Shown in pieces: positions 3,058 to 39,771 of a stretch of 64,000 nt of DNA. How positions within the stretch are numbered: the first letter of the stretch is position 1; each line of letters starts with the position of its first letter. The stretch lies in the NCBI GenBank assembly GCA_039027495.1, contig JBCCKH010000019.1, forward strand, positions 16,921-80,920, given 5' to 3'. The notes under the pieces were generated by a model. The model was not told the origin of the DNA. It saw nothing but the letters and a program-made list of their open reading frames with translations, and did not search any database. Made by a program: the position numbers and the translations under genes. Source of the DNA: Bacteroidota bacterium (GTDB taxonomy: Bacteria; Bacteroidota; Bacteroidia; Flavobacteriales; Flavobacteriaceae).

Positions 3058-3993
3058 TTGGACAACCGTTTCACTATAGCGTTTTACAATCTCGAGAACT
3101 TTTTTGATACGACCGATGACCCCCATACCTTGGATAACGATTTTACTCAAGGCGGGAAAAAGAATTGGAACGAAAACCGGTTCCGTAAAAAGACCAAGAA
3201 GATTGCCAATACCATTGCGCATATTGGTAAAGAAGAAAGTTCAATTCCTCCCGTTTTGGTCGGATTAGCGGAAGTGGAAAATGAAAATGTGCTGAATGCC
3301 CTTGTCAACACCAAAGCCTTGGAAGACATTCCTTATGATTGGGTGCACTTTGATTCCCCCGATGAAAGAGGGATTGATACCGCCTTACTGTACAACACCA
3401 ATCATTTTGAGGTTTTGGACGCAGAAATCGTCCCACTTTTCATTCATGAAGCAAATGGCGTACGCGACCATACCCGTGACATATTATATGTATATGGAAA
3501 GCTAAACGGAGAACCCGTTCATGTTTTTGTCAACCATTGGCCTTCGCGGAGGGATGGTGCAAAGGAAACCGAGTTCAAACGCCTAAAGGCTGCTGAAACC
3601 GTCTTGGGTAAAATCGATACGATTGATGAAGAAGTGTTCAACTGCATCGTGATGGGAGACTTTAATGATAATCCCACAGCAAAAAGCATTGAAACCTTGA
3701 TGGAATCACAACGATTCATCAATCCCATGCAAAGTTTGTTGTCTCGAAAAATGGGTAGTGCCAATTATAAAGGACAATGGAGTTTGTTCGACCAAATTAT
3801 TCTATCCCATAGCTTTTTGAATTTTGAACCGGGCACACATAACTATAAAGGCGCACAAATTTTCGCACCGAAATTTCTGCGAGAACGAAAAGGAAGGTAT
3901 AAAGGGACCCCATTTCGTACCTACGCCGGCAAAAAATACCTTGGGGGGTACAGCGATCACTTTCCCGTTTACGTAATTTTCCAGAAAAATTAA
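3058..3993 (+). CDS. Endonuclease/exonuclease/phosphatase family protein
   Basis: FYNLENFFD, LAEVEN, NHWPSRR, MGDFND, FDQI, YSDHFPV motifs; TTG start. Confidence 0.9.
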   Translation: MDNRFTIAFYNLENFFDTTDDPHTLDNDFTQGGKKNWNENRFRKKTKKIANTIAHIGKEESSIPPVLVGLAEVENENVLNALVNTKALEDIPYDWVHFDSPDERGIDTALLYNTNHFEVLDAEIVPLFIHEANGVRDHTRDILYVYGKLNGEPVHVFVNHWPSRRDGAKETEFKRLKAAETVLGKIDTIDEEVFNCIVMGDFNDNPTAKSIETLMESQRFINPMQSLLSRKMGSANYKGQWSLFDQIILSHSFLNFEPGTHNYKGAQIFAPKFLRERKGRYKGTPFRTYAGKKYLGGYSDHFPVYVIFQKN

Positions 3994-4145
3994 AAGAAAG
4001 AAAAGTACTACACCACATAAAATTCACCTTTCACAACAGCTCATCTGCAAACAGTGTGTAGTTCATCGAAATAAAAGGGTTTTTTATCGATGAAAATACG
4101 GCTAAAAATAAATTTGTAGTCCAAATCCTACCAAACCAAGGAATT

Positions 4146-6332
4146 ATGGACTATCCAAACTGGACCAAAACGCATTGCGGGCACCTTTTATTTTTCTGCG
4201 CTTTTGTCTTTTTTACATTCGGGTTTGCCCAAGAAATACATGTGTCATCTGTTGATGATGAACTTACCATTAAAGCGGATTTGTTCGCTGCAATAAAAGA
4301 CTTCAAATCTGAGAACGAAGTTACGCAAGCTAAGCTAGGTGTTTTGTTTTCGAATCACATGAAGTCTACTGAAAATGGTCGAGAGTTGGCGCTGGCTGAT
4401 TTGGGTGAAGACGGAACGCCACTTTTTTACACCACATACGCCAACATTTCCAGCTATGTTTCCAGAGCAAATTCCCTTTACACGGATGGGCTTTTGAATT
4501 TGGGATTGGATGGTGCAGGAATGCAGGTTGGCGTTTGGGATGCTGGCGTAGCGCTGAACTCCCACCAAGAATTCCAGAATCGGGTACGTTCTGGGGACGC
4601 TTCAGGTGATATTAGCAGCCATGCCACTTTAGTCACGGGCAATTTGGTGTCGACAGGGCTTAAACCTGATGCCAAAGGCGTTGCTTTTAAAGCCAACGCC
4701 ATCAGTCATGATTGGACGCGAGATAAAATAGAAGTCGCGGAAGCAGCTGCTCAAGGACTGCTGTTGAGCAACCATTCCTACGGGATTAAATCAGACCGTG
4801 TGCCGGATTGGTATTTCGGGTCCTATATCAAAGTTTCACAAGATTGGGATAAAATCATGTATAATGCGCCCTACTATCTTATGGTAACCGCGGCGGGCAA
4901 CGCACAACGTTCACGCGACAATGCATCGCCTATATTCGGACAAAGTGTAGATGGTTTTGATATGCTTTTGGGTTTTACAACAAGCAAAAATGGTATCACT
5001 GTCGGAGCCGCAAAAACAACTATCGGAAACCAAGGACAACTCAAACATGCAGATGTAAGTACCTATAGCAGCCTAGGACCGATTGACGACGGTCGCATCA
5101 AACCAGACTTGGTAGGAGACGGTGCTTCCATATTTTCAACAACCTCAAAAAACAATTCAAGCTACGGCACCTCAACGGGTACTTCGATGTCAGCGCCAGG
5201 AGTTACAGGAGCTCTGCTATTGCTACAGCAGTATGCCAAACAAAGCTTTGGCTCCTATGTAAGAGCGGCTACCATAAAAGGTTTGGCTTTACACACAGCT
5301 GATGATATAGGCGCAGCTGGACCAGATTACAAAATGGGATGGGGCGTCATGAACGCCATGAACGCTGCAAAAGTGATTCAGAACAACGGTTTTACATCAA
5401 TCATTGAAGAAAACACCTTGTTGGAAGGTGAGGAACATACCATCAACATTAAAGCGAACGGTAGCGAACTGTTGTTGATTTCCATTTCATGGACAGACCC
5501 CCAGGGCAACACGGTGAATTCAGGAATATTGAACGATCCTACCAAGGCCTTGGTCAACGATTTGGACATTCGTTTGGAAAAAAATGGAAAGGTCTTTCTG
5601 CCTTGGCGATTGAATCCAAAACAGGCAGCCGCCTCCGCTACCAGAGGAGACAATTCGGTTGATCCCTTTGAGCGCATAGATGTAGCCAATGCGCAAGGAG
5701 AATATACCTTGGTTATTTCCCATAAAGGAAGTCTTACCACTAGTGAGCAAGCCTATTCGCTAATCGTTTCGGGAGCAAAAGTCAATCAGTGTTCTGCTCA
5801 AGTTCCGGAGGAAGTGGGATTGGAATCCGCTTCGGAAAGTGAATTGTCAATTAGTTGGAAAGGCGTTCCCGATACGCTATATGAGGTGCAGTTCAAAGCA
5901 GCATCTGACGACTACTGGACTTCTTATTTTACTGAAGATGGCACACAGCAATTTGAAAATTTGGAAAGCGAAACCACCTATAACTTTCGCATCCGTTCCA
6001 TTTGTACGGAAAGTGTGGTCTCAGAATTTTCTGAAGAGTACACGTTTATTTTTAACGGAGAAAATACGGTTTTAGAAGAGAATAGTGTCTTCTCCATCGA
6101 TGACAATGTGCTTGAGATTGAAGTATTTCCTAACCCTGCTTCCGATTGGGTGACCATAAATTCAGCATATGCGCCAAATGCCATGTTCGCTTTGGTTTCC
6201 ACTTCAGGAAACACGTTACGCATGGGAAGCGTAACCGAAAAAATCAATGTTTCGGATTTAGCCTCAGGATTATACATTCTAATGGTGCAGGACCTCGAAG
6301 GTATCCGAAGCACCAAATTCTATAAAAAATAA
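4146..6332 (+). CDS. S8 (subtilisin-like) serine peptidase with FN3 domain and T9SS C-terminal sorting domain
   Basis: VWDAG (Asp), SHATLV (His), GTSMSAPG (Ser) triad; FN3-like YEVQFK..YNFRIRSIC; IEVFPNPASD...LASGLYILMV..KFYKK CTD. Confidence 0.92.
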   Translation: MDYPNWTKTHCGHLLFFCAFVFFTFGFAQEIHVSSVDDELTIKADLFAAIKDFKSENEVTQAKLGVLFSNHMKSTENGRELALADLGEDGTPLFYTTYANISSYVSRANSLYTDGLLNLGLDGAGMQVGVWDAGVALNSHQEFQNRVRSGDASGDISSHATLVTGNLVSTGLKPDAKGVAFKANAISHDWTRDKIEVAEAAAQGLLLSNHSYGIKSDRVPDWYFGSYIKVSQDWDKIMYNAPYYLMVTAAGNAQRSRDNASPIFGQSVDGFDMLLGFTTSKNGITVGAAKTTIGNQGQLKHADVSTYSSLGPIDDGRIKPDLVGDGASIFSTTSKNNSSYGTSTGTSMSAPGVTGALLLLQQYAKQSFGSYVRAATIKGLALHTADDIGAAGPDYKMGWGVMNAMNAAKVIQNNGFTSIIEENTLLEGEEHTINIKANGSELLLISISWTDPQGNTVNSGILNDPTKALVNDLDIRLEKNGKVFLPWRLNPKQAAASATRGDNSVDPFERIDVANAQGEYTLVISHKGSLTTSEQAYSLIVSGAKVNQCSAQVPEEVGLESASESELSISWKGVPDTLYEVQFKAASDDYWTSYFTEDGTQQFENLESETTYNFRIRSICTESVVSEFSEEYTFIFNGENTVLEENSVFSIDDNVLEIEVFPNPASDWVTINSAYAPNAMFALVSTSGNTLRMGSVTEKINVSDLASGLYILMVQDLEGIRSTKFYKK

Positions 6333-6412
6333 GACAATGCGATACGCTGAAATCGATATGAAACTTGTTGAAACGGAGTCCAAGCTTCCGCTTCGGAACC
6401 ATATTCGCTTTC

Positions 6413-7129
6413 TTAGAGTTTTTTTATTTCGGTTTCGGCAATAAGGGATTCGTTTCGCATTCGAAGGAACACTTGGGCCGTGGTAATTACATCCAATTCG
6501 CAATAGGTTACGATTCGGTCCAAATCGTTGTCATCATAAAAAACGGAGCGAACCATGCTGCCGTCCATATCTTCTTTTGGGGAGGGAATCTCCAAAACAT
6601 GGGCCAATAGCTTTAAAGAGGTGAAATTTTTATAATCACCGAATTTCCAGAGTTCCATAGTATCCAAATGGGGTACTTCCCAAGGTTTTTTACCAAATAA
6701 GTCCAGCTTGAAAGGTAAATCCAATCGGTTGATGAGCATTCTGCGTGCGATGTAGGGAAAGTCGAACTCCTTTCCGTTATGTGCGCAAAGCAAAAACTTG
6801 GGATGTTGATAATGTTCATCCAACAGGTTCTTGAACGCTTGCAAAAGCGTTTTCTCCTCACCATAAAAGGATTTGACCCTAAAATCCCGTGAATCTGCTT
6901 TCAGGTTGAAATACCCCACGGAAATACAGATAATTTTCCCGAACTCGGACCATATGCCCGCATTTTCATAGAATGCATCGGCTTCAATCTGGTCTTTGCG
7001 CTGGTATCGCGTTTTATGTTCCCAGAGGCTCTGGGTAAGTTCATCAACATCCGCATAGGAGGGAAGTTGTGGTACCGTTTCAATATCCAGAAATAGGATA
7101 TGGTCGAGTGGAATTTTTTGTATCCTCAT
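6413..7129 (-). CDS. PolB-like 3'-5' exonuclease family protein
   Basis: LFLDIETV (ExoI), AHNGKEFDFPY (ExoII), YCELDV (ExoIII). Confidence 0.88.
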   Translation of the reverse strand: MRIQKIPLDHILFLDIETVPQLPSYADVDELTQSLWEHKTRYQRKDQIEADAFYENAGIWSEFGKIICISVGYFNLKADSRDFRVKSFYGEEKTLLQAFKNLLDEHYQHPKFLLCAHNGKEFDFPYIARRMLINRLDLPFKLDLFGKKPWEVPHLDTMELWKFGDYKNFTSLKLLAHVLEIPSPKEDMDGSMVRSVFYDDNDLDRIVTYCELDVITTAQVFLRMRNESLIAETEIKKL

Positions 7130-7205
7130 AAACTGAAAAATAACAAATTAAGGCGCATTTCATACTTGTGGATTTATAAATCGTATATTGTAATTGATGA
7201 AAGCT

Positions 7206-8318
7206 ATGAAATCGAAAATCCATTTATGGATTTGTTTGTCGTTTCTTTTTTTGGGCTGTTCTAATGATGATAACAATAGCGAAACCGGCAACAGTGTATT
7301 TCCTGCGAGCTTTACTGTTATTGGAGAAGATCAGTCTCAAGTGTATCAATTCACCAGCCAGAACGGGTCTCAAATGGGGTCCAGCTCTAGTCTAACCGAG
7401 CAATTGGGCGTCCCTTCAAATTATCTTACCATAAGGCAAAACGACGAATATTTGTCGTTTTATACTTTTTCGGAGGATTCTTTCAGTTTATTTAGATGGA
7501 ATGTTGACCAATCAACAGGGGAAACGTTTGATTCGTTTTATACCGTTTCTACCCAGCGATCCATAGCATGGGGAATTGATTTGGATGATGTAGTGCTCTT
7601 CGGGTACTTTGGACCTTTTACGGCCAGAAATCTTTTTTTGCAAAGAGTGGATTTGGTGGAAGATAGTTTACGGGACATACCTATCGAAGACAATGTAATG
7701 TTGAGCTTTCAACCCCTTTTGCACAACCAAAAGCTCTATCTGTCTTTTCGAGATATGCAGGGTAACAATAAACTAGTACTTTATGATGAAGCCAATGACA
7801 GGCTTAGTCAGGTTTTGGACTTTGGCACAGCCCCATTCAGTTTTTTGGTCGCTGAAAATGATGAGATTGCCGTGATTCAAAACCTTCCTTCTCCTACCAT
7901 GGGATTCTATAACGGAGAAGATTTGACCCTTATCGAAGAAGTAGCTCTGCAAAGGAATTTTCCCCTTGAAATGGGTCCTATTCAAAACGCTTCAATTTTT
8001 GAAAATCGGTTCTATTATAATTTTGTATATCCCCAACCTGCTATACTTCCTGAGGGGCCTGCGGTATACGATTTGCAAACAGGAGAACATGGACTGATTG
8101 ATTTGGCTGGAATCTTAAGTGAGGTAGAAACGGAAGTGGGCCAAAATATAGAGGTCACTACCCAACGCTTTGATGAAGTAAGCAGGGTATTTTTAGTGGG
8201 TTTTGCCGCAACTTCGTCCAATACAATTAGCGGAGGCGTTGTACAAATATCAGAAGACGGAACCCGTTTTGAAATTTTTGAGTTTCCGTTTTTCCCTACG
8301 TATTTTGTTCGCAATTAG
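7206..8318 (+). CDS. Hypothetical lipoprotein, possibly beta-propeller
   Basis: Lipobox FLGC followed by acidic SNDDNN; beta-rich repeats. Start could be 7197. Confidence 0.7.
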   Translation: MKSKIHLWICLSFLFLGCSNDDNNSETGNSVFPASFTVIGEDQSQVYQFTSQNGSQMGSSSSLTEQLGVPSNYLTIRQNDEYLSFYTFSEDSFSLFRWNVDQSTGETFDSFYTVSTQRSIAWGIDLDDVVLFGYFGPFTARNLFLQRVDLVEDSLRDIPIEDNVMLSFQPLLHNQKLYLSFRDMQGNNKLVLYDEANDRLSQVLDFGTAPFSFLVAENDEIAVIQNLPSPTMGFYNGEDLTLIEEVALQRNFPLEMGPIQNASIFENRFYYNFVYPQPAILPEGPAVYDLQTGEHGLIDLAGILSEVETEVGQNIEVTTQRFDEVSRVFLVGFAATSSNTISGGVVQISEDGTRFEIFEFPFFPTYFVRN

Positions 8319-8785
8319 AATAAAGATTGTTGCTGAACAGGACTTTCAAAATCAAGGAGCCACTTTTTTCGCGATAATCCTCCGGCGTAACCCACTAAAT
8401 CGCCGTTACTCCCAATAACTCGATGACAAGGAACCACAATCCATAATGGATTTTTACCGTTAGCCGCAGCTACGGCTCGAATCGCTTTAGGATCACCTAA
8501 TGTTTTGGAAAGTTCTAGATAGGAAACCGTTTTTCCAAAGGGAATTTCTTGTAGTTGTTGCCAAACTTTCTTTTGAAATGTGGTGCCTTGGGGATTGAGC
8601 TTAAGGTCGAAGCGGGTACGCTTTTTATCAAAATACTCCTGAAATTGGTATACTGCATCTTCCAAAACCTCGGGAATAATGCCAACAGGCATCGTTTCGT
8701 CCAGAACTTTTATGCTGGCTAGGCCGTGTTCATCGCCTTTAAGCTCCGCAAGACCAATAGGGGTTTGAAAATAGGCAACTTCCAT
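8315..8785 (-). CDS. ogt: Methylated-DNA--protein-cysteine methyltransferase
   Basis: VPCHRVIG active site; RAVAAANGKNP helix-turn-helix. Confidence 0.95.
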   Translation of the reverse strand: MEVAYFQTPIGLAELKGDEHGLASIKVLDETMPVGIIPEVLEDAVYQFQEYFDKKRTRFDLKLNPQGTTFQKKVWQQLQEIPFGKTVSYLELSKTLGDPKAIRAVAAANGKNPLWIVVPCHRVIGSNGDLVGYAGGLSRKKWLLDFESPVQQQSLF

Positions 8786-9906
8786 CAGTCCATTTCAGTT
8801 TCCTCTTCAATAATGCCCAAGCGTTTGGCACGGGTCTTCCAATTCCGTCGGGCGAGTACTTGAAGGTCTTCTACATTGTCACTCTCGTCCATGATTTCGA
8901 GACCGAGCAGGGTTTCAATCACGTCCTCCATGGTTACCAAACCGCTTACCGAACCATATTCGTCTACCACTAAGGAAATGTGGTTTCGTTGTTCGACGAA
9001 TTTTTCAAACAAGTCGGGAATAGGTTTGGTTCGATTGGTCACCAAAATTTCCCGCTTTAAGGTAGAAAGCGGTTCCTTGCCTTGTTTATTGATAATGGCC
9101 TCCATCAACTCATCTTTGAGGAAAAAGCCCGTGATATTGTCGGCTCGTTCCTTGAACAAAGGAATTCTAGAGAAGCGTAAGGGACGGTTTTCATCAAAAA
9201 ACTGCTGGATGCTGGTTTCTTCGGAGGCTATTTTCATAACCGTTCGTGGGGTCATGACATCTTTGGCCAAAATTTCATCAAAACGCAACAGGTTCTTGAT
9301 AACTTTGGATTCCGATTCTTCAAAAACGCCTTCTTCATGGGCAATATCTGTCATGGCTGTAAAGTCTTCCCTGCTCAGTACGCTGCCGTGATGCCCTTTC
9401 TTACCAATGAGTTTGGTGAATAGTTGAAGCAGCCACAACAATCCGGTCCATTTTAAAATGAACACCATAATGTTTAGGGCTTTTGCCGTAAAGTTGGAAA
9501 GTTGTTTCCAATACGTAGCTCCAATCGTTTTTGGAATGATTTCGGAAGCGACCAAAATCAAAATGGTCATGATGGTGGAAACTACGCCGACCATAAGGTC
9601 TTCGGTAAATTCAATACCAAAGATGCTTCGGGTTTGGGTACCGTACAATTCTAAATAGGCAACTTTTGCTTGCACCCCAACTAAAATTGCGCCTACGGTA
9701 TGCGCTATCGTGTTTAAAGTTAGGATGGCAATGAGCGGTTTATCGACGTCCTTTTTTAGCGCTTCCAATTGTGCCGCGTATTCTTTCCCTTCTTGTTTTT
9801 TTACATTGAGGTAGGTAGGTGTAATGCTTAGTAGCACAGCTTCCAAAATGGAACACAAAAACGAAAAGAAGATGGATATAAAGGCATAGAAGAGGAGAAG
9901 TCCCAT
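8785..9906 (-). CDS. CNNM/DUF21 plus CBS domain protein (hemolysin/CorC-like)
   Basis: FSFLCSILEAVLLS N-terminal TM, SEIIPKTIG, VMTPR, VDEYGSVSGLVTMEDVIE. Confidence 0.92.
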   Translation of the reverse strand: MGLLLFYAFISIFFSFLCSILEAVLLSITPTYLNVKKQEGKEYAAQLEALKKDVDKPLIAILTLNTIAHTVGAILVGVQAKVAYLELYGTQTRSIFGIEFTEDLMVGVVSTIMTILILVASEIIPKTIGATYWKQLSNFTAKALNIMVFILKWTGLLWLLQLFTKLIGKKGHHGSVLSREDFTAMTDIAHEEGVFEESESKVIKNLLRFDEILAKDVMTPRTVMKIASEETSIQQFFDENRPLRFSRIPLFKERADNITGFFLKDELMEAIINKQGKEPLSTLKREILVTNRTKPIPDLFEKFVEQRNHISLVVDEYGSVSGLVTMEDVIETLLGLEIMDESDNVEDLQVLARRNWKTRAKRLGIIEEETEMD

Positions 9907-9948
9907 AGCTTAATTGGTTGATTTAAAAGTAGGGATATTTTTTTTGAA

Positions 9949-10938
9949 TCAGCTTAATAGCCTTGCCACATCTTTGGCAAAATAACTGGCAATAATGTTG
10001 GCCCCTGCCCTTTTGATGCTTAGCAGTTGTTCCATCATCACCGTATCGTGGTCCAACCACCCCTTGAGGGCTGCTGCTTTGAGCATGGCATATTCTCCAG
10101 AGACTTGATAGACCGCGACAGGAACGTCTACTTCGTTTCGAATTTCACGGACAATATCCAAATAGGGCAAACCAGGCTTTATCATTACGATATCGGCCCC
10201 TTCATCAATGTCCATTTGCGTTTCTCGAATGGCTTCAAATCGATTGGCGGGGTCCATTTGATAGGTCTTTTTATCCTTGGGGACATTTTGCATATCTACT
10301 GGTGCAGAGTCCAAGGCATCGCGAAAAGGGCCATAAAAGGCACTGGCATATTTGGCGGAATAACTCATAATACCCGTACCCTGAAATCCTTCGTCTTCCA
10401 GAGCTTCTCGAATCGTCAGAATACGTCCATCCATCATATCGCTGGGCGCGACAAAGTCTGCACCTGCCTGAGCATGAGAAATACACATTTCTGCCAAAAC
10501 CTCCGTCGTTTCATCATTCAAGATTTGTCCATCAGCGACAATACCATCATGCCCTAGGGCAGAAAAGGGGTCGAGGGCTACGTCGGTCATTACCAGCATT
10601 TCTGGACAGGCATTTTTAACTGTTTTTATCGCGCGTTGCATCAATCCGTCTGGATTTAGCGCCTCAGTACCTTTATTGTCTTTTAGGTCATCGGGTACTT
10701 TGACGAATAATAGTACTGCACAAAGGCCCATTTCCCAGAGTGTTTTGACTTCCTTCTCCAGATGGTCCAAACTCATTCGGTAATAGTTGGGCATGGAGGG
10801 AATTTCCTCTTTGACACCCTTGCCTTCCACCACGAAAAGAGGCACTAAAAAGTCATTTGGAGTAATAATGGTTTCACGAACCAATCTTCGGATGGATTCG
10901 TTTTGACGGAGTCTTCTATTTCGGATTAATGGATACAT
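9949..10938 (-). CDS. hemB: Porphobilinogen synthase
   Basis: DVALDPFSALGHDG, SDMMDGR, SYSAKYASAFYGPFRDA, YQVSGEYAM. Confidence 0.97.
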   Translation of the reverse strand: MYPLIRNRRLRQNESIRRLVRETIITPNDFLVPLFVVEGKGVKEEIPSMPNYYRMSLDHLEKEVKTLWEMGLCAVLLFVKVPDDLKDNKGTEALNPDGLMQRAIKTVKNACPEMLVMTDVALDPFSALGHDGIVADGQILNDETTEVLAEMCISHAQAGADFVAPSDMMDGRILTIREALEDEGFQGTGIMSYSAKYASAFYGPFRDALDSAPVDMQNVPKDKKTYQMDPANRFEAIRETQMDIDEGADIVMIKPGLPYLDIVREIRNEVDVPVAVYQVSGEYAMLKAAALKGWLDHDTVMMEQLLSIKRAGANIIASYFAKDVARLLS

Positions 10939-10943
10939 ATGGA

Positions 10944-10971
10944 TTAGTTTTTAAGCTTACAGCTTTAAGCT
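10944..10971 (-). repeat. Four phased heptamers at the 3' end of the four-helix-bundle gene
   Basis: Minus strand: AGCTTAA AGCTGTA AGCTTAA AAACTAA; the first unit contains the stop codon. Confidence 0.7.
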
Positions 10972-11330
10972 CTAAGTGATGCTTTTATTGTTCGAATTAA
11001 AGCAGCTAACATTTTTTTGATTTCGTCAATTTCAGAAATGAGTTTCTTCGCATTCTTGGATTCTATAAAACCGAGCTCTGAAGAAACCAATAATAAATAG
11101 TCCAATTCGTGAGTAGAGCCAGAAGCTATGTAAAGAAATCGAACTAATTCTTTTTCAGTTTCTCTCCCACAACCTTCTGCACTATTAGTAGGGATTGAAA
11201 TGGAAGCTCTTTGAATTTGAGAAATCAAGTTGAACTGTTCAGACTTGGGAAACCCCTGGGTTATCTCATACATTTTAAAAACATATTGATGCGATTTTTG
11301 CCAGACTTTGTAATTCTTATAATTGACCAT
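10965..11330 (-). CDS. Four helix bundle protein (TIGR02436 / 23S-IVP / Avd-like)
   Basis: YKVWQKSH..FPKSEQFNLISQIQRASISIPTNSAEGCGR..RFLYIASGSTHEL signature. Confidence 0.9.
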   Translation of the reverse strand: MVNYKNYKVWQKSHQYVFKMYEITQGFPKSEQFNLISQIQRASISIPTNSAEGCGRETEKELVRFLYIASGSTHELDYLLLVSSELGFIESKNAKKLISEIDEIKKMLAALIRTIKASLRA

Positions 11331-11356
11331 TTGCTTTAAGCTATAGGCTTGTTACT
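11329..11356 (-). repeat. Four phased heptamers at the 5' end of the four-helix-bundle gene
   Basis: Minus strand: AGTAACA AGCCTAT AGCTTAA AGCAAAT; the last unit overlaps the ATG. Confidence 0.7.
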
Positions 11357-11361
11357 TACCG

Positions 11362-12150
11362 CTAAACCTCAATTTCACCAATGAGATAAGGAACGGCTTT
11401 TCCTGATATTTTGACACGGTCTCCCAAGTATTCACAAACCAAATTACCTCCACGTTGGGACAGTTGTTTGGCCGTTAACCTGGTTTTGTTCAGTTTTTGG
11501 GCCCAATAGGGTGTGAGGGTCGTATGCGCTGAACCGGTCACAGGGTCCTCTGGAATACCACATTGTGGAAAAAAGGCTCTTGAAACAAAATCAACGGTTT
11601 CCCCCGGAGCGGTGAAAATCACACCGCGGCAATCAATCTTATCCAACAGGAAAAAGTTGGGCTTTAAGCTTTCAACAACTTTTTGGGAGGGATAGATCAA
11701 CATATAGTCCGTTTTTCCCTTGAAGGTTTCCAAGGGAACTTCCCCAATGGCTTCATTCACGGCTGGGTTGGGTTCGGTTTTCCGAAGCAAATCGGTTGGA
11801 AAATCCAAACAAAGTAGTCCGTCCGTGGTTTTTGTGACGGTAAGTGAACCGCTTCGTTCTGAGTAAAATACAATGGTGTCTGTTGGGTGTCCGTAGTACT
11901 CGAAAAGTACATATGCTGTTGCAAGAGTGGCATGCCCGCAAAGGTCTACTTCGGTTTCCGGTGTAAACCAACGCAATCCATACTGCTCATTCTCTTTTAC
12001 GGAAAATGCAGTTTCGGCAAGGTTGTTTTCCTGCGCAATGTTTTGCATGACATCATCTTCCAACCAATCCTCTAGTATGCAAACGGCCGCGGGGTTTCCA
12101 GTGAAAACCTTACTGGCAAATGCATCAATTTGATAGATTTTTTGTTTCAT
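11362..12150 (-). CDS. PhzF-family isomerase
   Basis: QIDAFASKVFTGNPAAV, NLAETAF, EVDLCGHATLA, EDPVTGSAH. Start reassigned to MKQKIY. Confidence 0.92.
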   Translation of the reverse strand: MKQKIYQIDAFASKVFTGNPAAVCILEDWLEDDVMQNIAQENNLAETAFSVKENEQYGLRWFTPETEVDLCGHATLATAYVLFEYYGHPTDTIVFYSERSGSLTVTKTTDGLLCLDFPTDLLRKTEPNPAVNEAIGEVPLETFKGKTDYMLIYPSQKVVESLKPNFFLLDKIDCRGVIFTAPGETVDFVSRAFFPQCGIPEDPVTGSAHTTLTPYWAQKLNKTRLTAKQLSQRGGNLVCEYLGDRVKISGKAVPYLIGEIEV

Positions 12151-12167
12151 TCTCCGTGAAGATACTA

Positions 12168-13070
12168 TTAAACCCAAGCTTTAGGTTGTTGTAAAACCAT
12201 TGTCAAGCTTTCCTCTCTACTACCTTTTTCGGGTTGGTGGTCGTATTTCCATTGCACATGTGGCGGCAAACTCATTAAAATACTTTCAATGCGACCATTG
12301 GTGCGCAGCCCAAAAAGGGTCCCTTTGTCATGAACCAAATTGAATTCGACATAGCGTCCCCTTCTGATTTCTTGCCAATCCCTTTCTTCTTGCGAAAAAG
12401 ACAATTCTTTTCGTTTTTCCACAATGGGAAGATACGCTTCCAAAAAGCTGTCCCCGACTTCGGTAACGAAATTGTACCAATCCTGTATCGTCATGGTATC
12501 AGTCGCTTTGCAGTAGTCAAAGAACAATCCGCCCACACCTCGGGCTTCATTTCTGTGGGTATTCCAAAAGTATTCGTCACAACGTTTTTTATACGTAGCA
12601 TAAAATTCAGTGTTATGGGCGTCACAAGCTTTTTTGCAAACGGCATGAAAGTGCTGGGCGTCCTCTTCAAAAAGATAGTAAGGGGTTAAATCTTGTCCTC
12701 CGCCAAACCACTGGTCTACGATCTTGCCAGTTTTGTCGTACATTTCAAAATAGCGCCAGTTTGCATGAACCGTTGGCACCATTGGATTTTTTGGGTGCAA
12801 GACCAAACTCAAGCCACAAGCGAAAAAATCAGCATCCGCTACCCCAAAATACTGTTGCATGCTTTTGGGCAGCTCCCCATGCACCGCGGAAATATTGACA
12901 CCCCCTTTTTCAAATACATCCCCGGTTTCAATCACGCGTGTTCTGCCACCTCCGCCTTCGGGGCGTTTCCAAATATCCTCTTGAAATTTGGCTTTTCCAT
13001 CAATAGCTTCTAGAGAAGTTGTGATGGTGTCTTGCAATTGTTGGATATAGGCGTAAAATGCGTCTTTCAT
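12168..13070 (-). CDS. hemF: Oxygen-dependent coproporphyrinogen III oxidase
   Basis: GGGGRTRV, FEKGGVNIS, PTVHANWRYF, RRGRYVEFNL, RIESILMSLP. Confidence 0.97.
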   Translation of the reverse strand: MKDAFYAYIQQLQDTITTSLEAIDGKAKFQEDIWKRPEGGGGRTRVIETGDVFEKGGVNISAVHGELPKSMQQYFGVADADFFACGLSLVLHPKNPMVPTVHANWRYFEMYDKTGKIVDQWFGGGQDLTPYYLFEEDAQHFHAVCKKACDAHNTEFYATYKKRCDEYFWNTHRNEARGVGGLFFDYCKATDTMTIQDWYNFVTEVGDSFLEAYLPIVEKRKELSFSQEERDWQEIRRGRYVEFNLVHDKGTLFGLRTNGRIESILMSLPPHVQWKYDHQPEKGSREESLTMVLQQPKAWV

Positions 13071-13555
13071 GTTGTTTTGATGTGTACGAGTTGCTGTTTG
13101 AACTTCTCCAAATCGGTTTCGGTGGTTATGTGAAAAGATGCTAAGGTCATTTCTTTTAGTACCGCCAAGCTTTTTTCCTGATTCAAGCCATGCTTAGCGA
13201 ACAACTCTCTTCCGATAGCATTGTTATGTTCATCCATTTTCCAGGCCAATTCGGTATTGACAAAAGCATCTTCGTGCCAGTCCGTGATTTTTTTCGTCCA
13301 CAAAAGTACTTTGGGCTCGCTTTTCCACCATCGGAAACAGCGTTTCGCAATAAGATAATTCCAAAGCGCATGTCTAAAAGCGTTTTCCGGACCATTTTGA
13401 TAATGCTTTCGACCATACAATTCCGTGGACAAGGCCATGCATTGCCGGGTGGCCAAAAACGTGGGAATCACATAGGGAAGGTGTGTCAAGGAAAGCCATA
13501 AGAGTTTCCCAAACATTTTGGGTCGTACTTGTTTCAAAAGCTTCACCCATTTCAC
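13067..13555 (-). CDS. DUF6973-like protein
   Basis: [23 protein letters not shown] motif; ATGA overlaps with both hemE and hemF. Confidence 0.7.
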
Positions 13556-14577
13556 GTACCATATGATTTAACCGCGTCAATAAATGCCTTGGCATTCTCC
13601 AAAGGAATATTGGGTAGTATCCCATGGCCCAAATTGGCAATGTACTTGTCCTTGCCAAAGTTATCGATCATTTGTTTGGTCATTCTTTTGATTTCTTCAG
13701 GAGGAGATAGCAAACGTGCAGGGTCAAAATTGCCTTGCAAGGTGATATTCCCACCAGTGAGATACCGTGCATTTGCGGGAGAACACGTCCAATCTACCCC
13801 AACGGCTGATGCGCCAGAATTCGCCATTTCTTTCAATGCAAACCAACACCCCTTACCAAAAACAATTACGGGAGCCTCCTCTTTTAGGGCATCGACGATT
13901 TGTTGAATGTAGGGCCAAGAAAATAGTTGGTAGTCTGTTGGAGAGAGCATACCGCCCCATGAGTCAAAAACCTGGATTGCGTTCACGCCAGCAGCTACTT
14001 TTGCCTTTAGATAGGTGATGGTAGTGTCCGTAATGCGTTGGAGCAGTTCGTGCGCAACCTCGGGTTGCGTAAAGCATAATCCTCGAGCTTTGTCAAAACT
14101 TTTGCTACCCTGACCTTCTACACAATAGCACAAAATGGTCCAAGGGGAGCCTGCGAAACCAATTAAAGGAACTTCATCGTTCAATTTTTCCTTCGTCATG
14201 GTTATGGCTTCCATGACATACCCCAATGCTTCATCAACATCGGGTACGAAGACCTTTTCCAAATCCTTTGCGTTGCGTATGGGATTGGGCAAATAGGGGC
14301 CAAAATTGGGCTTCATTTGAACTTCGATGTTCATGGCTTGTGGAATAACCAAAATATCACTGAACAAAATTGCAGCATCCATTCCATAACGTCGGATGGG
14401 CTGAACCGTGATTTCAGAAGCCAATTCAGGAGTTTGGCAACGGGTAAAGAAATCATACTTTTCCTTGAGCGCCATGAATTCGGGCAAATAGCGTCCGGCT
14501 TGACGCATCATCCATACCGGAGGTCGGTTCACGGTTTCTCCCTGTAAGGCGCGAAGAAATAAATCGTTTTTAATCAT
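13552..14577 (-). CDS. hemE: Uroporphyrinogen decarboxylase
   Basis: [37 protein letters not shown]. Confidence 0.97.
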
Positions 14578-15241
14578 TTTCCTTAAAAAACTTTATGGTT
14601 TGTACCAATACATTTTCCGTTGTAGGCCGATTGGCAATGATGATTTGGTTAAAATGCGGTTTTGCAGCTTCGGCTGTGGTTTCGCCTATGCAAAACGCAG
14701 GACTTATAAAGTTGGGATTCGCTTCCAAATAGCTTCGGATGCCACTAGGGCTGAAAAAAAGAACTCCATCAAAAGCTTGCAAAAATTGTTTTGGTTTGAG
14801 GAGGGTTTCATACCCCACTATTTCTTGATACCAAACGTTATGTTGGGACAAAAGCTTGGGAAGCTCATTTCGCCTCAGATTACCCGAAATGTAAATAAAC
14901 CGATAGGTATGGTGATTTTGAACAATTTTGTTTCCTAGTTCTTCAGCATTTCGAGCGGTTTCCATTACCAAGAGCCCTTCTTGCTCTAAAAATGCCCTAG
15001 TCTTGTCCCCAACGCAGTAGCATTGATACTTTTTTAGGTCAACCCTTGCCCGATGTAATGCATTCACAAAAGCCTTTACGGCATTCTTGCTCGTAAAAAT
15101 ATAATGGGATTCATCTAACGGGAGAGATACTTCCGGAAAGCGGATTTCAATCGCATTGTATTCGACGAAGCCAACCTTCGCATTTAGCAAAAGTTCTTTT
15201 TGCGATGACGAAAGCACTTTAGTGGACAGCACTGTTTTCAT
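14570..15241 (-). CDS. hemD: Uroporphyrinogen-III synthase
   Basis: [29 protein letters not shown]; position between hemC and hemE. Confidence 0.9.
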
Positions 15242-16148
15242 CACGGATGTGTTGCATCAAAATTTTCCCGCCTGAATCCAATACTTCGTTAGCGCAGTGT
15301 TTACCAAAGTCTGAAATATCCTTTTCGGCAATAGTCTTTTCTACTTCGATTTTCTCTTTTCCGTCAAGGGATAGCAAACACCCTTTAAAATAAACCGATT
15401 GGTCTTTTAATTTTGCAATTGCCCCAATAGGTGCAGTGCAACCGCCTTCAAGGGTTCTCAAGAATTCACGTTCAATTTGCGTTTCGACTTCAGTTGGGGA
15501 GTGATTTATTTGCGCCAATGCTTCCTTGCAATAGTCATTGGCATTTGTCGTGGCGACCATCATTGCCCCTTGAGCAGGAGCAGGTATCATCCAGTCCAAA
15601 CTAAGGGCGTCTTTCGGCAGTAGTTTTATCCGTTCCAGACCTGCTTGGGCGAATATCGCGCCTTGCCAATCGTTTTCGATGAGTTTCAATAAGCGAGTGT
15701 TTACATTTCCTCGAAGGTTTACTACAATATGATGAGGATAACGGTGTAACCATTGGGCTTTTCTGCGCAGACTTCCTGTAGCGATGGTAACAGTGTTGGT
15801 TTCAGAGGACAGAAATTCCATTCCTTTATGAACCAAAATGTCTTCTGCTGCTGCACGTTGTAACACGGCGGCTTGTATAATTCCTTCGGGCAGTTGGGTG
15901 GGAACATCTTTCATGGAATGCACTGCGATATCAATTTGACCTTTGAGCAATGCAATGTCGAGTGTTTTTGTGAAGATTCCCGTTACGCCCAATTCGTATA
16001 GGGGCTTATCCAATATTTGGTCTCCTGTGGAAGTAATGGGCACCAAAATCGTATCACAACCCAAGTTCTCTAACCTGGATTGTACTGTCTTTGCTTGCCA
16101 CAAAGCCAATTCGCTCTCGCGTGTACCAATTCTTATGATTTTACCCAT
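15219..16148 (-). CDS. hemC: Hydroxymethylbilane synthase
   Basis: IRIGTRESELALWQA, GIFTKTLD, AVHSMKDVP, GSLRR, EGGCTAPIG. Confidence 0.97.
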   Translation of the reverse strand: MGKIIRIGTRESELALWQAKTVQSRLENLGCDTILVPITSTGDQILDKPLYELGVTGIFTKTLDIALLKGQIDIAVHSMKDVPTQLPEGIIQAAVLQRAAAEDILVHKGMEFLSSETNTVTIATGSLRRKAQWLHRYPHHIVVNLRGNVNTRLLKLIENDWQGAIFAQAGLERIKLLPKDALSLDWMIPAPAQGAMMVATTNANDYCKEALAQINHSPTEVETQIEREFLRTLEGGCTAPIGAIAKLKDQSVYFKGCLLSLDGKEKIEVEKTIAEKDISDFGKHCANEVLDSGGKILMQHIRDENSAVH

Positions 16149-17401
16149 TCGGAATCTATTTCCAGCTGAAAGATTTTTTGAATGATTGCAAGGCTATCCT
16201 CAGTGTCCACATCAGATTTGCGCAGATGATTTGCAAATTGTTTGGTTATTTTTTGGATGAGGCGGTCCGATATGATTTCAGCTTGATCTTGATTGAAATC
16301 CGAAAGTTTTCTGGAGTGGAAGTCAATTTCCTCGGCCTTCATCACTTTTAGTTTTTCTTTTAAAGCGGAGATTACAGGAGCAAATTTTCGGGTTTCCAAC
16401 CATTTCAGGAAATCTGTTTTGATTTCGCTAATAATTTCTTCTGCTTGTGGAATGAATTTCTTTCTTTTTTCCAAAGTTTCGTCGGTTAACTTAGAGAGTT
16501 GGTCCAGGTGAACCAAAGAAACATTGTCCAATTCCTCAACATCATCAGAAACATTCTTGGGCACGGAGAGATCTAAAATCAAGAGGGGCTTTTTGGGATG
16601 AATCAAGGCCTTCGAAATAGTTGGAAGTTGCGCACCAGTGGCCACGACCAGAATATCCGCTTTGCGTATTTCCGTTTGCAACTCTCCGTAATCTTTTACC
16701 TTCAATTGAAACTTTCCCGCTATGGCTTCGGCCTTGTTGCGTGTTCGATTGATTAAGGTTATATGTGAATTGTCGGAATGTTTGATGAGGTTTTCACAAG
16801 TATTTCGACCAATCTTGCCTGTCCCAAACAACAGAATGTTCTTGTCGGAAATGTTAGGGAAATGATCCAAAATATATTTTACGGAGGCAAACGCCACAGA
16901 GGTTGCCCCTGAAGAAATTTGTGTCTCGTTTTTGATACGCTTACTGGCTTGAATGACCGAATTGCACAATCGCTCCAAAAAAGGGTGTGCCATGCCATGT
17001 TTCTTAGATCGGTAAAACCCTTGTTTGATTTGACTTATGATCTCAAAATCACCAAGAATTTGACTGTCCAACCCCGTACCTACGCGAAACAAATGTGAAA
17101 TCGCGTCGTGATTTTTATGCACGTAAGCAACCTCTTGAAATTCTTCAACGGTGCCTTCGGCTTGATCACAAAGCATTTTGATGAGCTGATACGGATGTTG
17201 CGCAAAACCGTAGAGTTCAGTTCTATTGCAAGTGGAAATAGCCAAGAGACCATCCAAACCTTCTTCTTTTGCAGCAGCAATGATATTATCAATGGCAGGG
17301 ACGTCTAAACTGAATTTTCCACGGAGGTCGGCGTCAGCTTTTTTGTAGCTAAGACCAATACCGTAGAACGAACTATTTCTTGAATTACTGGAATTCCTCA
17401 T
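16133..17401 (-). CDS. hemA: Glutamyl-tRNA reductase
   Basis: STCNRTELY, GLDSQILGDFEIISQ, GTGKIG, DLSVPKNV. Start reassigned from 17557 to MRNSS at 17401. Confidence 0.95.
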   Translation of the reverse strand: MRNSSNSRNSSFYGIGLSYKKADADLRGKFSLDVPAIDNIIAAAKEEGLDGLLAISTCNRTELYGFAQHPYQLIKMLCDQAEGTVEEFQEVAYVHKNHDAISHLFRVGTGLDSQILGDFEIISQIKQGFYRSKKHGMAHPFLERLCNSVIQASKRIKNETQISSGATSVAFASVKYILDHFPNISDKNILLFGTGKIGRNTCENLIKHSDNSHITLINRTRNKAEAIAGKFQLKVKDYGELQTEIRKADILVVATGAQLPTISKALIHPKKPLLILDLSVPKNVSDDVEELDNVSLVHLDQLSKLTDETLEKRKKFIPQAEEIISEIKTDFLKWLETRKFAPVISALKEKLKVMKAEEIDFHSRKLSDFNQDQAEIISDRLIQKITKQFANHLRKSDVDTEDSLAIIQKIFQLEIDSEWVKS

Positions 17402-17559
17402 GAAAGGCAATAGATTAGCACAAAAATAGAAGCCGTATATTTGAAAAAATAACGCTAGCGGAACTTTTAATGCCGCATGCGGCACATCTGTCTTCGAGAT
17501 TTGGCAAAAACTCCCAAAAGTGTAGTAAAAATGGTGTTTTTGATGTAATTTTATCAATA

Positions 17560-17578
17560 ATTTAGAGTGGTTCTAAAT
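17560..17578. promoter_or_regulatory. Fur-like operator ATTTAGA-N5-TCTAAAT between divergent hemA and araC
   Basis: ATTTAGA gtggt TCTAAAT perfect 7-5-7 palindrome. From recall it matches the 19-bp Fur box proposed for Riemerella/Flavobacteriia. Confidence 0.65.
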
Positions 17579-17611
17579 AAGAAATTCAGAATCTAATTTT
17601 GTTCACGTTTT

Positions 17612-18490
17612 ATGAAAAGTATCGCTACAGGTTCCTACGATGAAATTTTGGTGGAATCTGGTTTTTTTGTTTTAAAAATTCAAAACGACACCGATGAGGT
17701 AAAGGTGGTTGAACGAGAAATAGATAGCTCTTTCATTCAATTCCATTTTTGTCTAAAGGGAAATTCAAAGTTTCTTTTCAACCAGGGGGGGTATCAACTC
17801 GAGGTTTCCGAAGAAAATAGTCTTTTGCTATACAATACGCAACGCGATTTACCCTTGCACGCCGTGGTCTCTCCAAATACTTGGTTGCTATCGGTTATCA
17901 TGACTATCCGTAAGTTCCATTCTTTGTTTTCGAAAGAAGCGGGCTACATCCCTTTCCTTAGTGAAGAATTCAAAGAGAAAAAGTACTATGGTCAGGAGAT
18001 GGTATCACCATCTATTGCGGTAGTGTTAAGTCAGTTGATGCAATACAATTTGAACCCCTTTATGAAGGAATTGTATGTGAAAGGAAAAGTCTATGAACTC
18101 ATATCGCTATACTTCAATAAAACTCCAGAAGCAGATTTGGAACAATGCCCTTTTCTAGCGGATGAAGAAAATGTGAGAAAGATAAAAATGGCCAAGGAAA
18201 TCATTATTGCACGTATGGCCGAACCCCCAACCCTGAACCAACTTTCTGAAGAAATCGGGTTGAGCCTTAAAAAGCTAAAGGAAGGTTTCAAACAGATTTA
18301 TGGGGATTCGGTTTTTGGATTTTTGTTTGATTACAAGATGGAGTTTGCCCGCAAAATGCTCGAAACGGGCAGGCACAATGTCAATGAAGTAGGGTTGAAA
18401 GTAGGCTATAGCACGGCAAGCCATTTTATCGCCTCCTTTAAAAAGAAATATGGTACTACCCCTAAAAAGTATTTATCTTCCATTGCTTAA
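17612..18490 (+). CDS. AraC-family transcriptional regulator
   Basis: PPTLNQLSEEIGLSLKKLKEGFKQIYG and VNEVGLKVGYSTASHFIASFKKKYGTTP double HTH. Confidence 0.93.
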   Translation: MKSIATGSYDEILVESGFFVLKIQNDTDEVKVVEREIDSSFIQFHFCLKGNSKFLFNQGGYQLEVSEENSLLLYNTQRDLPLHAVVSPNTWLLSVIMTIRKFHSLFSKEAGYIPFLSEEFKEKKYYGQEMVSPSIAVVLSQLMQYNLNPFMKELYVKGKVYELISLYFNKTPEADLEQCPFLADEENVRKIKMAKEIIIARMAEPPTLNQLSEEIGLSLKKLKEGFKQIYGDSVFGFLFDYKMEFARKMLETGRHNVNEVGLKVGYSTASHFIASFKKKYGTTPKKYLSSIA

Positions 18491-18499
18491 AATCACCTT

Positions 18500-19264
18500 A
18501 TGAAACGCCTAACCTTATCGCTTTTGTTGCTTGTTTTATGGAGCTGTTCCAATGCCCAAACCGGGACTGAAGAAAATGCTTCAGAAGAAGTTGTGCCCCC
18601 CAAATTTGTTTTGGTTTTTAGCAAAACTGCGGGCTACCGACATGAGTCTATTGAAAAAGGAACAGAAACCCTTCGCAAACTTGGGCGTGATAACGGTTTT
18701 GTGGTATTGCAAACCGAAACTTCTGAAGATTTCAATGCAACCAATTTGGCGAATTATCAACTTGTGGTGTTTTTGAGCACGACCCAAGATGTCTTGAACG
18801 ATAAACAGCAAACTGCTTTTGAAAACTACATCAAAGGAGGTGGAAGTTTTATGGGCATTCATGCTGCAACTGATACCGAATATGATTGGCCCTGGTTTGG
18901 GAAACTGGTTGGAGCTTACTTTGACGGTCATCCCAACAACCCCAATATTCGCGATGCCAAGATAGATGTGCTTGACAATTCGCATCCTTCTACAGCACAT
19001 CTTTCGAGCACTTGGCAGCGGAGTGATGAGTGGTACAATTACAAGAACCTGAATCCGAAAATGAAGGTGTTGCTAAATCTAGATGAAACGAGTTATGAGG
19101 GCGGAACCAACGGCAAAAACCATCCTATAGCTTGGTATCACGAATTTGATGGAGGCAGGTCTTTTTACACCGGCGGTGGCCATACCAATGAGAGTTTCGA
19201 TGAACCCGCTTTTCAACAACATCTATTGGGCGGAATTCTTTGGTGCTTGGGGGTGAAACCTTAG
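18500..19264 (+). CDS. ThuA-domain lipoprotein
   Basis: Lipobox WSC; VLVFSKTAGYRHESI, GGSFMGIHAATD, DEWYNY, GRSFYTGGGH. Confidence 0.88.
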   Translation: MKRLTLSLLLLVLWSCSNAQTGTEENASEEVVPPKFVLVFSKTAGYRHESIEKGTETLRKLGRDNGFVVLQTETSEDFNATNLANYQLVVFLSTTQDVLNDKQQTAFENYIKGGGSFMGIHAATDTEYDWPWFGKLVGAYFDGHPNNPNIRDAKIDVLDNSHPSTAHLSSTWQRSDEWYNYKNLNPKMKVLLNLDETSYEGGTNGKNHPIAWYHEFDGGRSFYTGGGHTNESFDEPAFQQHLLGGILWCLGVKP

Positions 19265-19269
19265 TTCCC

Positions 19270-39362: not shown

Positions 39363-39653
39363 GTCATTCCTGCGAAAGCAGGAATCCTTTTCTCAACATT
39401 TGGATTACTTCATCCCAGCCTGCCCGACCGCTGACTGGGTTTCTGGGTCTCTTTCCAACAAGCCTAAGATGCTGAAACCAGTTCAGCATGACCGCATCTT
39501 TTTTATGTCACCCTGAACTACTTGTCCGACCGAAGGCGGGGTTTCAGGGTCCTTTTCCAACGAGTTCAAGATGCTGAATCAAGTTCAGCATGATCGCATC
39601 TTTTTTACATCACCCTGAACGCCTTGCCCGACCGCAGGCGGGGTTTCAGGTTC
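39363..39653. repeat. Tandem REP-doublet array (about 102-bp period)
   Basis: GTCATTCCTGCGAAAGCAGGAATC, then alternating GTCACCCTGAA..TTCAGGGTC and AGATGCTGAA..TTCAGCATGAC hairpins; AGATGCTGAA starts at 39467 and 39569. Confidence 0.9.
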
Positions 39654-39771
39654 TTTTCTTATCAACTCAAACCGCAGTTCCCTAAATCCATAAGGGTCAA
39701 CAATCAATTCACATACCCAGGCCGTAGGGGAATTAGCTAGTTTCTCACGTTAAATCTAAAATTTTTTCGCG

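Follow-up and report, generated by a model that had tools for sequence, protein, structure and literature searches.

What does a small gene of a family without assigned function do between two sets of phased 7-nt repeats in a haem operon? The question is raised by a stretch of 64,000 nucleotides from a Bacteroidota bacterium of the Flavobacteriaceae (assembly GCA_039027495.1, contig JBCCKH010000019.1, positions 16,921 to 80,920), here called the window, in which the IVP gene (10965-11330, minus strand, 121 aa) separates phzF from hemB and encodes a four-helix-bundle protein of PF05635/TIGR02436, as judged from HMM scores, a structural model and dN/dS. To our knowledge, this very large family has two crystal structures and no function. 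A preliminary description of the DNA had taken the repeats for cis sites, either bound by the encoded protein on the messenger RNA or used as ends for insertion and excision. The reading we favour, at a probability of roughly 0.45, is that gene and repeats form a cassette of the intervening sequence (IVS) type, whose two arms would pair into a periodic stem in the RNA, which would be processed, bound by the cassette's own pentameric protein, or both. It builds on the observed anatomy of the cassette, on its conservation, on the complementarity of its arms and on the purifying selection acting on its gene.

Phased arrays on both sides of IVP genes

On the sense (minus) strand the gene is preceded by AGTAACA-AGCCTAT-AGCTTAA-AGCAAAT(G) (11329-11356), four heptads in which a core AAGY recurs every 7 nt and which run into the ATG, and it is followed by AGCTTAA-AGCTGTA-AGCTTAA-AAACTAA (10944-10971), again four heptads, with a core RCTT every 7 nt and with the stop codon TAA (10965-10967) inside the array. 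The bases, the coordinates and the overlap with the start and stop codons read exactly as first described, and in orthologues from different genera the AAGY-NNN units keep their register with the ATG. The window as a whole shows no enrichment of AGCTTAA (11 found, 8.6 expected). The 10-mer AGCTTAAAGC occurs in exactly three copies in the 64 kb, all inside 710 nt, and the open reading frame (ORF) is bracketed by a 13-nt direct repeat, TA(T/G)AGCTTAAAGC. The third copy of the 10-mer (11661-11670) lies in phzF and was dismissed as chance, because it is coding sequence (in-frame codons E-S-L-K-P) and is missing in the closest relative (L003). Period-7 self-identity amounts to 0.46-0.52 in the upstream and 0.71 in the downstream array; calculated over the whole intergenic flanks it is among the highest 2.5% of window positions upstream and the highest 1.3% downstream, and the best 28-nt sub-window, compared with control windows from related loci, falls in the top 8% upstream and the top 0.6% downstream. 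The sole period-7 tandem array that TRF reports in the window is found at 10950-10976 (3.9 copies). From this window alone, the periodicity is suggestive only.

The relatives are decisive, and judged from their sequences the period-7 signal around family members is real. A scan of one genome per species yielded 63 loci with 58 intact genes (genome set), with 1160 windows as controls. Seven was the best period in 49 of 58 upstream and 56 of 58 downstream flanks, against 82 of 1160 controls (7%; Mann-Whitney P ~1e-35). A scan with an alignment of diverse members added 78 further, distant genes of 38-54% identity (metagenome set), for which 7 or 8 was the best period upstream in 63/78 and downstream in 71/78. 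The heptad periodicity is thus significant once relatives are included, and the periodic flanks that the preliminary description had expected around paralogues are a hallmark of the whole family. When TRF was run on 133 family genes from several phyla, the period was equal on both sides (7/7 in 56 genes, 8/8 in 15, never 7 with 8), and the modal length of 192 arrays was four units. Polarity is fixed, the G/purine-rich arm lying 5' and the C-rich arm 3' in 28/29 and 39/47 scored genes. Co-oriented genes flank 31 of the 44 family members of a metagenome sample, and different paralogues within one genome carry different private repeat units. The layout of array, IVP gene and array is also present in contigs from viral collections. 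The IVP gene of Nostoc punctiforme pNPUN02 has five units of GGAGTCA upstream and their complement downstream, and the homologues of Xanthomonas XCC0516, located between accB and accC in the acetyl-CoA carboxylase operon, have four units of GGGAATC upstream and four of the complement ATTCCCN downstream (2924-3373 in L162 and L163, 2983-3433 in L165). The repeat GGGAATC has been reported at ~186 sites in the X. campestris genome, without a link to the XCC0516 homologue (Rehm et al. 2015; PMC4692102).

The density of these arrays bears on the possibility that they are non-functional by-products, that is, slippage-prone 7-nt simple sequence repeats gathering by chance next to these small genes. 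In 660 kb of relatives' DNA, 84 of 136 period-7 arrays (62%) lie at most 60 nt from an IVP ORF, although such regions make up ~5% of the sequence; the arrays are two-sided, of the same period, inverted and of fixed polarity across phyla, the window holds a single period-7 array, and neutral slippage does not predict complementary partners. This makes the explanation very improbable, even if heptameric repeats are over-represented in bacteria, with polymerase slippage as the proposed cause (PMC4692102), if copy number varies among near-identical relatives and among Coxiella strains, and if 52 of the 136 arrays are orphans away from IVP genes.

Several other repeats were observed along the way. 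Orphan heptamer arrays without a detectable IVP ORF occur at other haem-operon junctions in several Flavobacterium genomes (L041 3544-3674; L044 3908-3973; L036 4023-4064; L034 6880-6936), some with units similar to the resident cassette's and some with unrelated ones, e.g., (TTTAGGA)n. Kilobase-scale alternating blocks of (TTCAGGT)n and (GACCGCT)n adjoin an IVP gene in a metagenome-assembled genome (MAG) of the Polyangiaceae (L057 4641-6405), and long (GGCTGAC)n arrays are found in a Chloroflexi MAG (L061 3637-3788); both far exceed what a cassette needs. Two plasmid copies in Nostoc PCC 7120, which encode an identical protein (L167 1501-1960, L168 1504-1960), have (CCTCTGC)x6 downstream, no upstream array and transposase genes of insertion sequences (IS) nearby, and may have lost their 5' arm to IS activity. 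Almost all plasmid-borne IVP relatives are from heterocystous cyanobacteria (Nostoc, Calothrix, Trichormus, Anabaena, Scytonema), the group in which short tandemly repeated repetitive (STRR) heptamers were reportedly first described.

Inverted arms and a predicted stem

The preliminary description was right that phased 7-nt repeats bracket the gene, and it needs a correction in that these are more than phased direct repeats: the two arrays are inverted with respect to each other and able to pair. The unit in the window contains AGCT, and its arrays therefore look direct as well as inverted. Non-palindromic units show the inversion, as in Flavobacterium, with ACAGTTT/ACGGTTT upstream and AAACTGT/AAACCGT downstream; at one locus, GGTTTGC precedes the gene and AACTGTC follows it. 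In both the minimum free energy structure and the centroid calculated by RNAfold, the arms at 11333-11350 and 10953-10970 of the minus strand pair into a predicted long-range hairpin (10953-11350), in which AAGC-C-UAUAGCUU-A-AAGC faces GCUU-A-AAGCUGUA-A-GCUU in 4+8+4 bp (16/18 positions) with two 1x1 mismatches. This hairpin closes a 362-nt loop that holds almost the whole ORF, and its 3' arm ends 14 nt before the ATG of hemB. The flank-to-flank duplex of the window has -25.5 kcal/mol (z ~-2.4 against dinucleotide shuffles). Among the relatives, cognate arm duplexes of the genome set reach a mean z of -3.1 against shuffles, and cognate arms pair better than non-cognate ones both there (-24.3 vs -18.7 kcal/mol, P < 2e-4) and in the metagenome set (-36.0 vs -21.7 kcal/mol, z -19), where the inverted relation of the arrays is also more stable than the direct one (-36.0 vs -27.3 kcal/mol, P 2e-5).

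The protein encoded in the loop is basic (pI 9.2) and far exceeds the curated cut-offs of PF05635 (123.7 bits vs 33.8) and TIGR02436 (123.9 bits vs 24). Its AlphaFold2 model (pLDDT 95.5) is an up-down four-helix bundle with helices 8-24, 35-54, 59-85 and 91-120, for which Foldseek gives TM scores of 0.91-0.96 to 2GSC (XCC0516), ~0.8 to 2RLD (BT_0352) and, at ~13% identity, 0.76-0.87 to Avd (4DWL/8UB7). The earlier statements that TIGR02436 has no assigned function and is structurally related to Avd are thus correct. The motif R-x3-S-x3-N-x2-E, credited to Lin 2006 and Zhang and Ye 2013 (quoted in PMC3936711), is present, and R41, S45, N49 and E52 are invariant in both family alignments. The protein stays below the cut-offs of the Avd models (NF033474, 31.6 bits vs 80; PF22296, 28.6 vs 40), and it matches the PHROG family "Avd protein of DGR" (diversity-generating retroelement) with an E-value of 7e-10. 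The crystal structures 2GSC and 2RLD contain five chains each, which together with the description in PMC4990558 suggests that the IVP forms a homopentameric toroid. The median dN/dS among IVP orthologues is ~0.07, and hence the sequences indicate a functional protein under strong purifying selection.

How might gene and arms work together? Scans for sigma-70 promoters, intrinsic terminators and the TAnnTTTG motif found none inside the cassette, and no terminator-like site lies in 9800-12300. Given this absence of promoter-like and terminator-like sites and the tight or overlapping junctions of the operon, the cassette is most likely co-transcribed with the haem genes. In such a transcript, the purine/G-rich 5' arm would pair with the pyrimidine/C-rich 3' arm to form an imperfect, periodically interrupted stem with the ORF as its loop, covering the IVP start region and ending just ahead of the hemB start codon. 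The stem would be a cis-acting element, namely a processing site in double-stranded RNA like those of the 23S rRNA intervening sequences excised by RNase III, and it would probably also serve the encoded pentamer as its cognate ligand, in the way that the Avd pentamer grips an RNA stem-loop; pairing of the RNA in vivo, cleavage by RNase III and binding of the protein are here inferred by analogy with these systems. Through cleavage or binding, the RNA of the cassette would be disconnected from the messages on the phzF and hemB sides and the expression of IVP would be set, and the stem may define the 5' end of the hemB message, since its 3' arm ends 14 nt before that ATG.

A number of observations weigh against such a stem. 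The folding energy of the whole cassette is ordinary (z 0.2), and the stem of the window is short, with its 16 bp and two mismatches. G-U wobble pairs give no support for the sense strand, as sense and antisense are equal in the genome set (P 0.49) and the antisense strand has a small advantage in the metagenome set (-38.9 vs -36.0 kcal/mol, P 0.009), in a test that has low power because both arms are strand-skewed (G-rich 5', C-rich 3'). Within the AAGY/RCTT class, cognate arms (-25.1 kcal/mol) hardly surpass non-cognate ones (-23.3 kcal/mol); any 5' arm pairs with almost any 3' arm, so that the variable spacers show little compensatory change; the repeats also leave the register of alignments ambiguous. 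Heptads in which four core bases are conserved and three spacer bases are free resemble a protein site more than a helix. Arm lengths are not matched, since genes that are 94-98% identical have from 4 to >8 units upstream and ~4 downstream. Finally, the constant period of 7-8 nt, the four-unit mode and the fixed polarity are all left unexplained by a plain stem. These three features point to a protein that reads the repeats, and a model of single-strand iterons is therefore kept as a serious rival.

In that model, which resembles the trp RNA-binding attenuation protein (TRAP), each heptad (AAGY upstream, RCTT downstream) binds one subunit of the IVP ring on RNA or single-stranded DNA, arm pairing is incidental or competing, and binding autoregulates the IVP gene and/or modulates translation of hemB. 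The core and spacer and their register with the ATG across genera fit this well, as do the constant period with ~4-5 units beside a gene whose product forms a pentamer (five chains each in 2GSC and 2RLD), the strand polarity, the scarcity of spacer covariation, the binding of RNA by pentamers of the Avd family and the fact that GGGAATC both flanks the Xanthomonas IVP gene and recurs at ~186 other sites in X. campestris (PMC4692102). Yet units differ widely (AAGCNNN, ACAGTTT, GCGGTTT) between orthologues of 60-75% identity, which would demand a fast co-evolution of specificity, and the complementarity of the arrays means that one protein surface must read two different strands; moreover, the modal copy number is 4 and not 5. 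TRAP-like attenuation in the strict sense, which the preliminary description had offered, fails despite the phased cores, as there is no terminator or anti-terminator in 9800-12300. We regard single-strand iterons as possible, if somewhat unlikely, and they do not exclude the processed and bound stem that we favour. The more general claim of the preliminary description, that the arrays are cis sites tied to the protein, is well supported as an association by the flanks of the whole family, with the correction that they are not simply direct repeats; the IVP may plausibly bind them.

The cassette in the haem operon and its history

The cassette is part of a tightly packed operon on the minus strand, hemA-C-D-E-DUF6973-hemF-phzF-IVP-hemB-CNNM-ogt. 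Its upstream host gene phzF (11362-12177) encodes a PhzF-family isomerase (PF02567, E 4e-55), its downstream host gene hemB (9949-10938) the porphobilinogen synthase (PF00490, E 4e-140; NF006762, 488 bits), and further upstream follow hemF (12168-13070), the DUF6973 gene (13067-13555) located between hemE and hemF, hemE (13552-14577) and hemA (16133-17557), all on the minus strand. The IVP gene starts 31 nt past the phzF stop and hemB 26 nt past the IVP stop, whereas most other junctions of the operon overlap. With a GC content of 0.32-0.37, as against 0.44-0.50 in phzF and hemB, the gene is indeed AT-rich, and there is no family of transposases, integrases or reverse transcriptases among the proteins scanned within ~8 kb (3058 to 20118), in line with the first description of a 121-aa gene without mobility functions nearby. 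The scanned proteins are those of haem synthesis or housekeeping, with the exception of a 374-aa ORF (7194-8318) without Pfam match. The 64-kb window contains no second copy of the cassette, Rfam gave no significant or credible match in 9800-12400, and none of the defence-system models of PADLOC matched.

Orthologues of 58-97% identity are found just upstream of hemB or beside hemE/hemF in at least ten genera of the Flavobacteriaceae (Flagellimonas, Allomuricauda, Croceivirga, Croceitalea, Seonamhaeicola, Lutibacter, Flavobacterium, Aequorivita, Gillisia and Snuella), and IVP divergence tracks that of hemB (Spearman rho 0.53) and hemF (0.44). The cassette is absent from Maribacter HTCC2170, lies between hemF and phzF in F. 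myxillae (L148), and several genomes have frameshifted or truncated IVP copies. In an uncultured Flavobacteriaceae MAG (L018 5001-6194), three tandem IVP cassettes with a period of 398 nt are located between hemF and hemB; the first two copies differ by a single base and the third at 16-17 positions, and an assembly artefact is possible. The junctions lie in the 8-mer TTAAAGCT common to both arrays, which speaks for unequal crossing-over. An ORF-less derivative is found in L026 (3641-3940), where a second IVP paralogue upstream of hemE is reduced to a relic of 24 codons by the loss of ~290 nt between two short direct repeats (compare L023 1-500 and L035 1600-2230), and where both GGTATCN/TACCAGA arms are kept and still predicted to pair. 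Judged from these sequences, the cassette is old at this site and vertically inherited; some lineages later lost it, shifted it, amplified it in tandem or kept no more than its arms without the ORF.

This history also bears on whether the cassette is a mobile element at the level of DNA, with the inverted arrays as terminal inverted repeats (TIRs) for insertion and excision, the IVP as a DNA-binding accessory and catalysis provided in trans. A recent mobile insertion, one of the suggestions of the preliminary description, is refuted on that description's own terms, because the gene is old, vertical and functional: the slot is conserved across the bacterial family, IVP divergence follows hemB, dN/dS is ~0.07, and neither a transposase nor a target-site duplication was found. 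An empty site of the kind that the same description had envisaged in relatives does exist in Flagellimonas eckloniae (L149), where 5 nt separate phzF and hemB, but its comparison with the filled site of the window reveals no target-site duplication, and a deletion explains the empty junction equally well. The clean junction in F. eckloniae and the position on the other side of phzF in F. myxillae are what an element might leave, as are the low GC content and the patchy distribution of the family over rRNA genes, cas operons (PMC3936711), accB-accC of Xanthomonas and the present haem operon; the symmetry of the arrays, whose G-rich strand reads inward from either end as in TIRs, the lack of an RNA-strand (G-U) signature and the triplication in L018 could be added. 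However, phzF is a variable neighbour in many genomes and can explain the apparent shift, the triplication is accounted for by crossing-over at the shared TTAAAGCT, and the private unit of each paralogue within a genome differs from the shared ends expected of a family mobilised in trans. Together with the stable position and the lack of transposase or integrase genes within ~8 kb and of a second copy in the window, this renders an element moving as DNA improbable.

Some features of the operon were observed in passing. At the operon's head, a gene for an AraC-family regulator (17612-18490, plus strand) is oriented divergently to hemA; it is a candidate regulator of the haem genes. The DUF6973 and PhzF-family genes are embedded among the genes of haem synthesis, the former being retained in a Flagellimonas-like clade (38-73% identity), and phzF varies by genus in being present, absent or on the opposite side of the IVP cassette.

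Relation to known systems

The closest parallels to the stem-forming cassette are the 23S rRNA intervening sequences of Leptospira, Coxiella burnetii, Brucella and Haemophilus, which like the cassette combine an ORF of the same family with complementary, stem-forming termini inside a longer transcript. In Coxiella, three to four units of GACAGAT lie in the 5' half of the 28-bp stem at the ends of the IVS, and the first of these repeats is where RNase III cleaves (PMC4990558). As in the window, these tandem heptamers occupy the 5' arm immediately ahead of the start codon, and strains differ in how many they have, as do the upstream arrays of the relatives of the window. The 23S intervening sequences sit in helix 25 or 45 of the rRNA, whereas the host of the present cassette is a protein-coding operon (phzF and hemB flanks); the Coxiella ORF is decaying and probably untranslated, unlike the ORF of the window with its strong purifying selection (dN/dS ~0.07); and the stem measures 28 bp in Coxiella as against 16 bp here, with RNase III cleavage shown there and supposed by analogy here. 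For Avd, it has been described that all five protomers of the pentamer contact an 11-bp RNA stem-loop via flipped-out bases in the crevices between protomers (bioRxiv 10.1101/2023.10.23.563531). Avd thus shares with the IVP a basic, four-helix-bundle protomer, and binds an RNA stem-loop next to its own gene; it differs in sequence (~13% identity, with the IVP below both Avd cut-offs). Unlike a diversity-generating retroelement, the window has no reverse transcriptase among the genes scanned within ~8 kb, a comparison in which template and variable repeats were not searched for, and heptad arrays are not a described feature of such retroelements.

Heptameric simple sequence repeats (SSRs) of bacteria likewise consist of 7-nt units in about four copies between co-oriented genes, and they are transcribed and often occur in convergent (inverted) pairs, as do arrays of the type seen in the window. 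For GGGAATC of Xanthomonas and GGGGA(C/T)T of Nostoc, the preference for four units has been explained by G-quadruplexes, with no link drawn to IVP genes (PMC4692102). That explanation was rejected for the present locus, because the AAGCNNN units are not G-rich and cannot form quadruplexes; also unlike SSRs, the arrays of the window are not dispersed (one array in 64 kb). REP and REPIN sequences with their RAYT genes resemble IVP cassettes in that one gene lies between inverted short repeats, with orphan copies between co-oriented genes and with paired derivatives that lack the ORF (compare L026). RAYTs are HUH tyrosine transposases, whose catalytic mechanism is known, and REPs are single palindromes, whereas the IVP has no recognisable catalytic domain and its arrays are tandem 7-nt units. 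A dispersal of IVP-type arrays by the IVP itself would be pure speculation. TRAP is a beta-sheet 11-mer that recognises triplet cores and controls a ligand-dependent switch between terminator and anti-terminator. The resemblance lies in a ring of subunits whose gene is close to short RNA repeats in phase, in which the core is conserved and the spacer varies; the differences are the unrelated fold of TRAP, the lack of a terminator in the window and the mutual complementarity of its arrays.

Already known are the gene family itself, its occurrence in rRNA intervening sequences and within operons, the heptamers of one IVS and heptameric repeats as a genomic oddity. In the searchable literature, IVP genes have not been linked to flanking heptamers save in the single case of Coxiella, although subscription journals and database comments may differ. 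Apparently new are the rule that family members sit between inverted, polarised arrays of the same period with ~4 units of 7-8 nt, and the assignment of the Xanthomonas GGGAATC repeats as arms of the XCC0516 homologue. Two old puzzles, the functionless TIGR02436/PF05635 family and the functionless heptameric repeats of bacteria, are thereby joined in one fixed architecture that spans rRNA intervening sequences, housekeeping operons (haem synthesis, accB-accC) and cas operons, inside which published observations had placed IVP-family genes (PMC3936711). If the pentamer binds the repeat stem and RNase III cuts it, the cassette would represent a widespread, autonomous, self-processing RNA module inserted harmlessly between essential genes, and genes annotated as "four helix bundle protein" in operons and defence loci would be hitch-hiking cassettes rather than components of these systems. 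It is tempting to go further and to regard IVP pentamers as dedicated trans-acting partners of the 7-8-nt tandem repeats in the intergenic regions of many bacteria (GGGAATC of Xanthomonas, the STRR type of cyanobacteria, the kb-scale arrays of myxobacteria and Chloroflexi), each IVP lying between an inverted pair of its own repeat and reading stem or strand, in RNA or DNA, for processing, stability or spread, with the haem cassette as a domesticated single-copy example; this extension seems to us rather unlikely.

Elsewhere in the window, at a distance from the cassette, a 102-nt unit with internal GC-rich palindromes is repeated 2.3 times in tandem (39421-39658, 83% matches). It is followed by nested tandem repeats with periods of 9, 18, 27, 45 and 120 nt that are rich in GATGGT/GACGGT (39973-40538) and look like a repetitive coding region, such as that of a collagen-like or Asp-Gly repeat protein.

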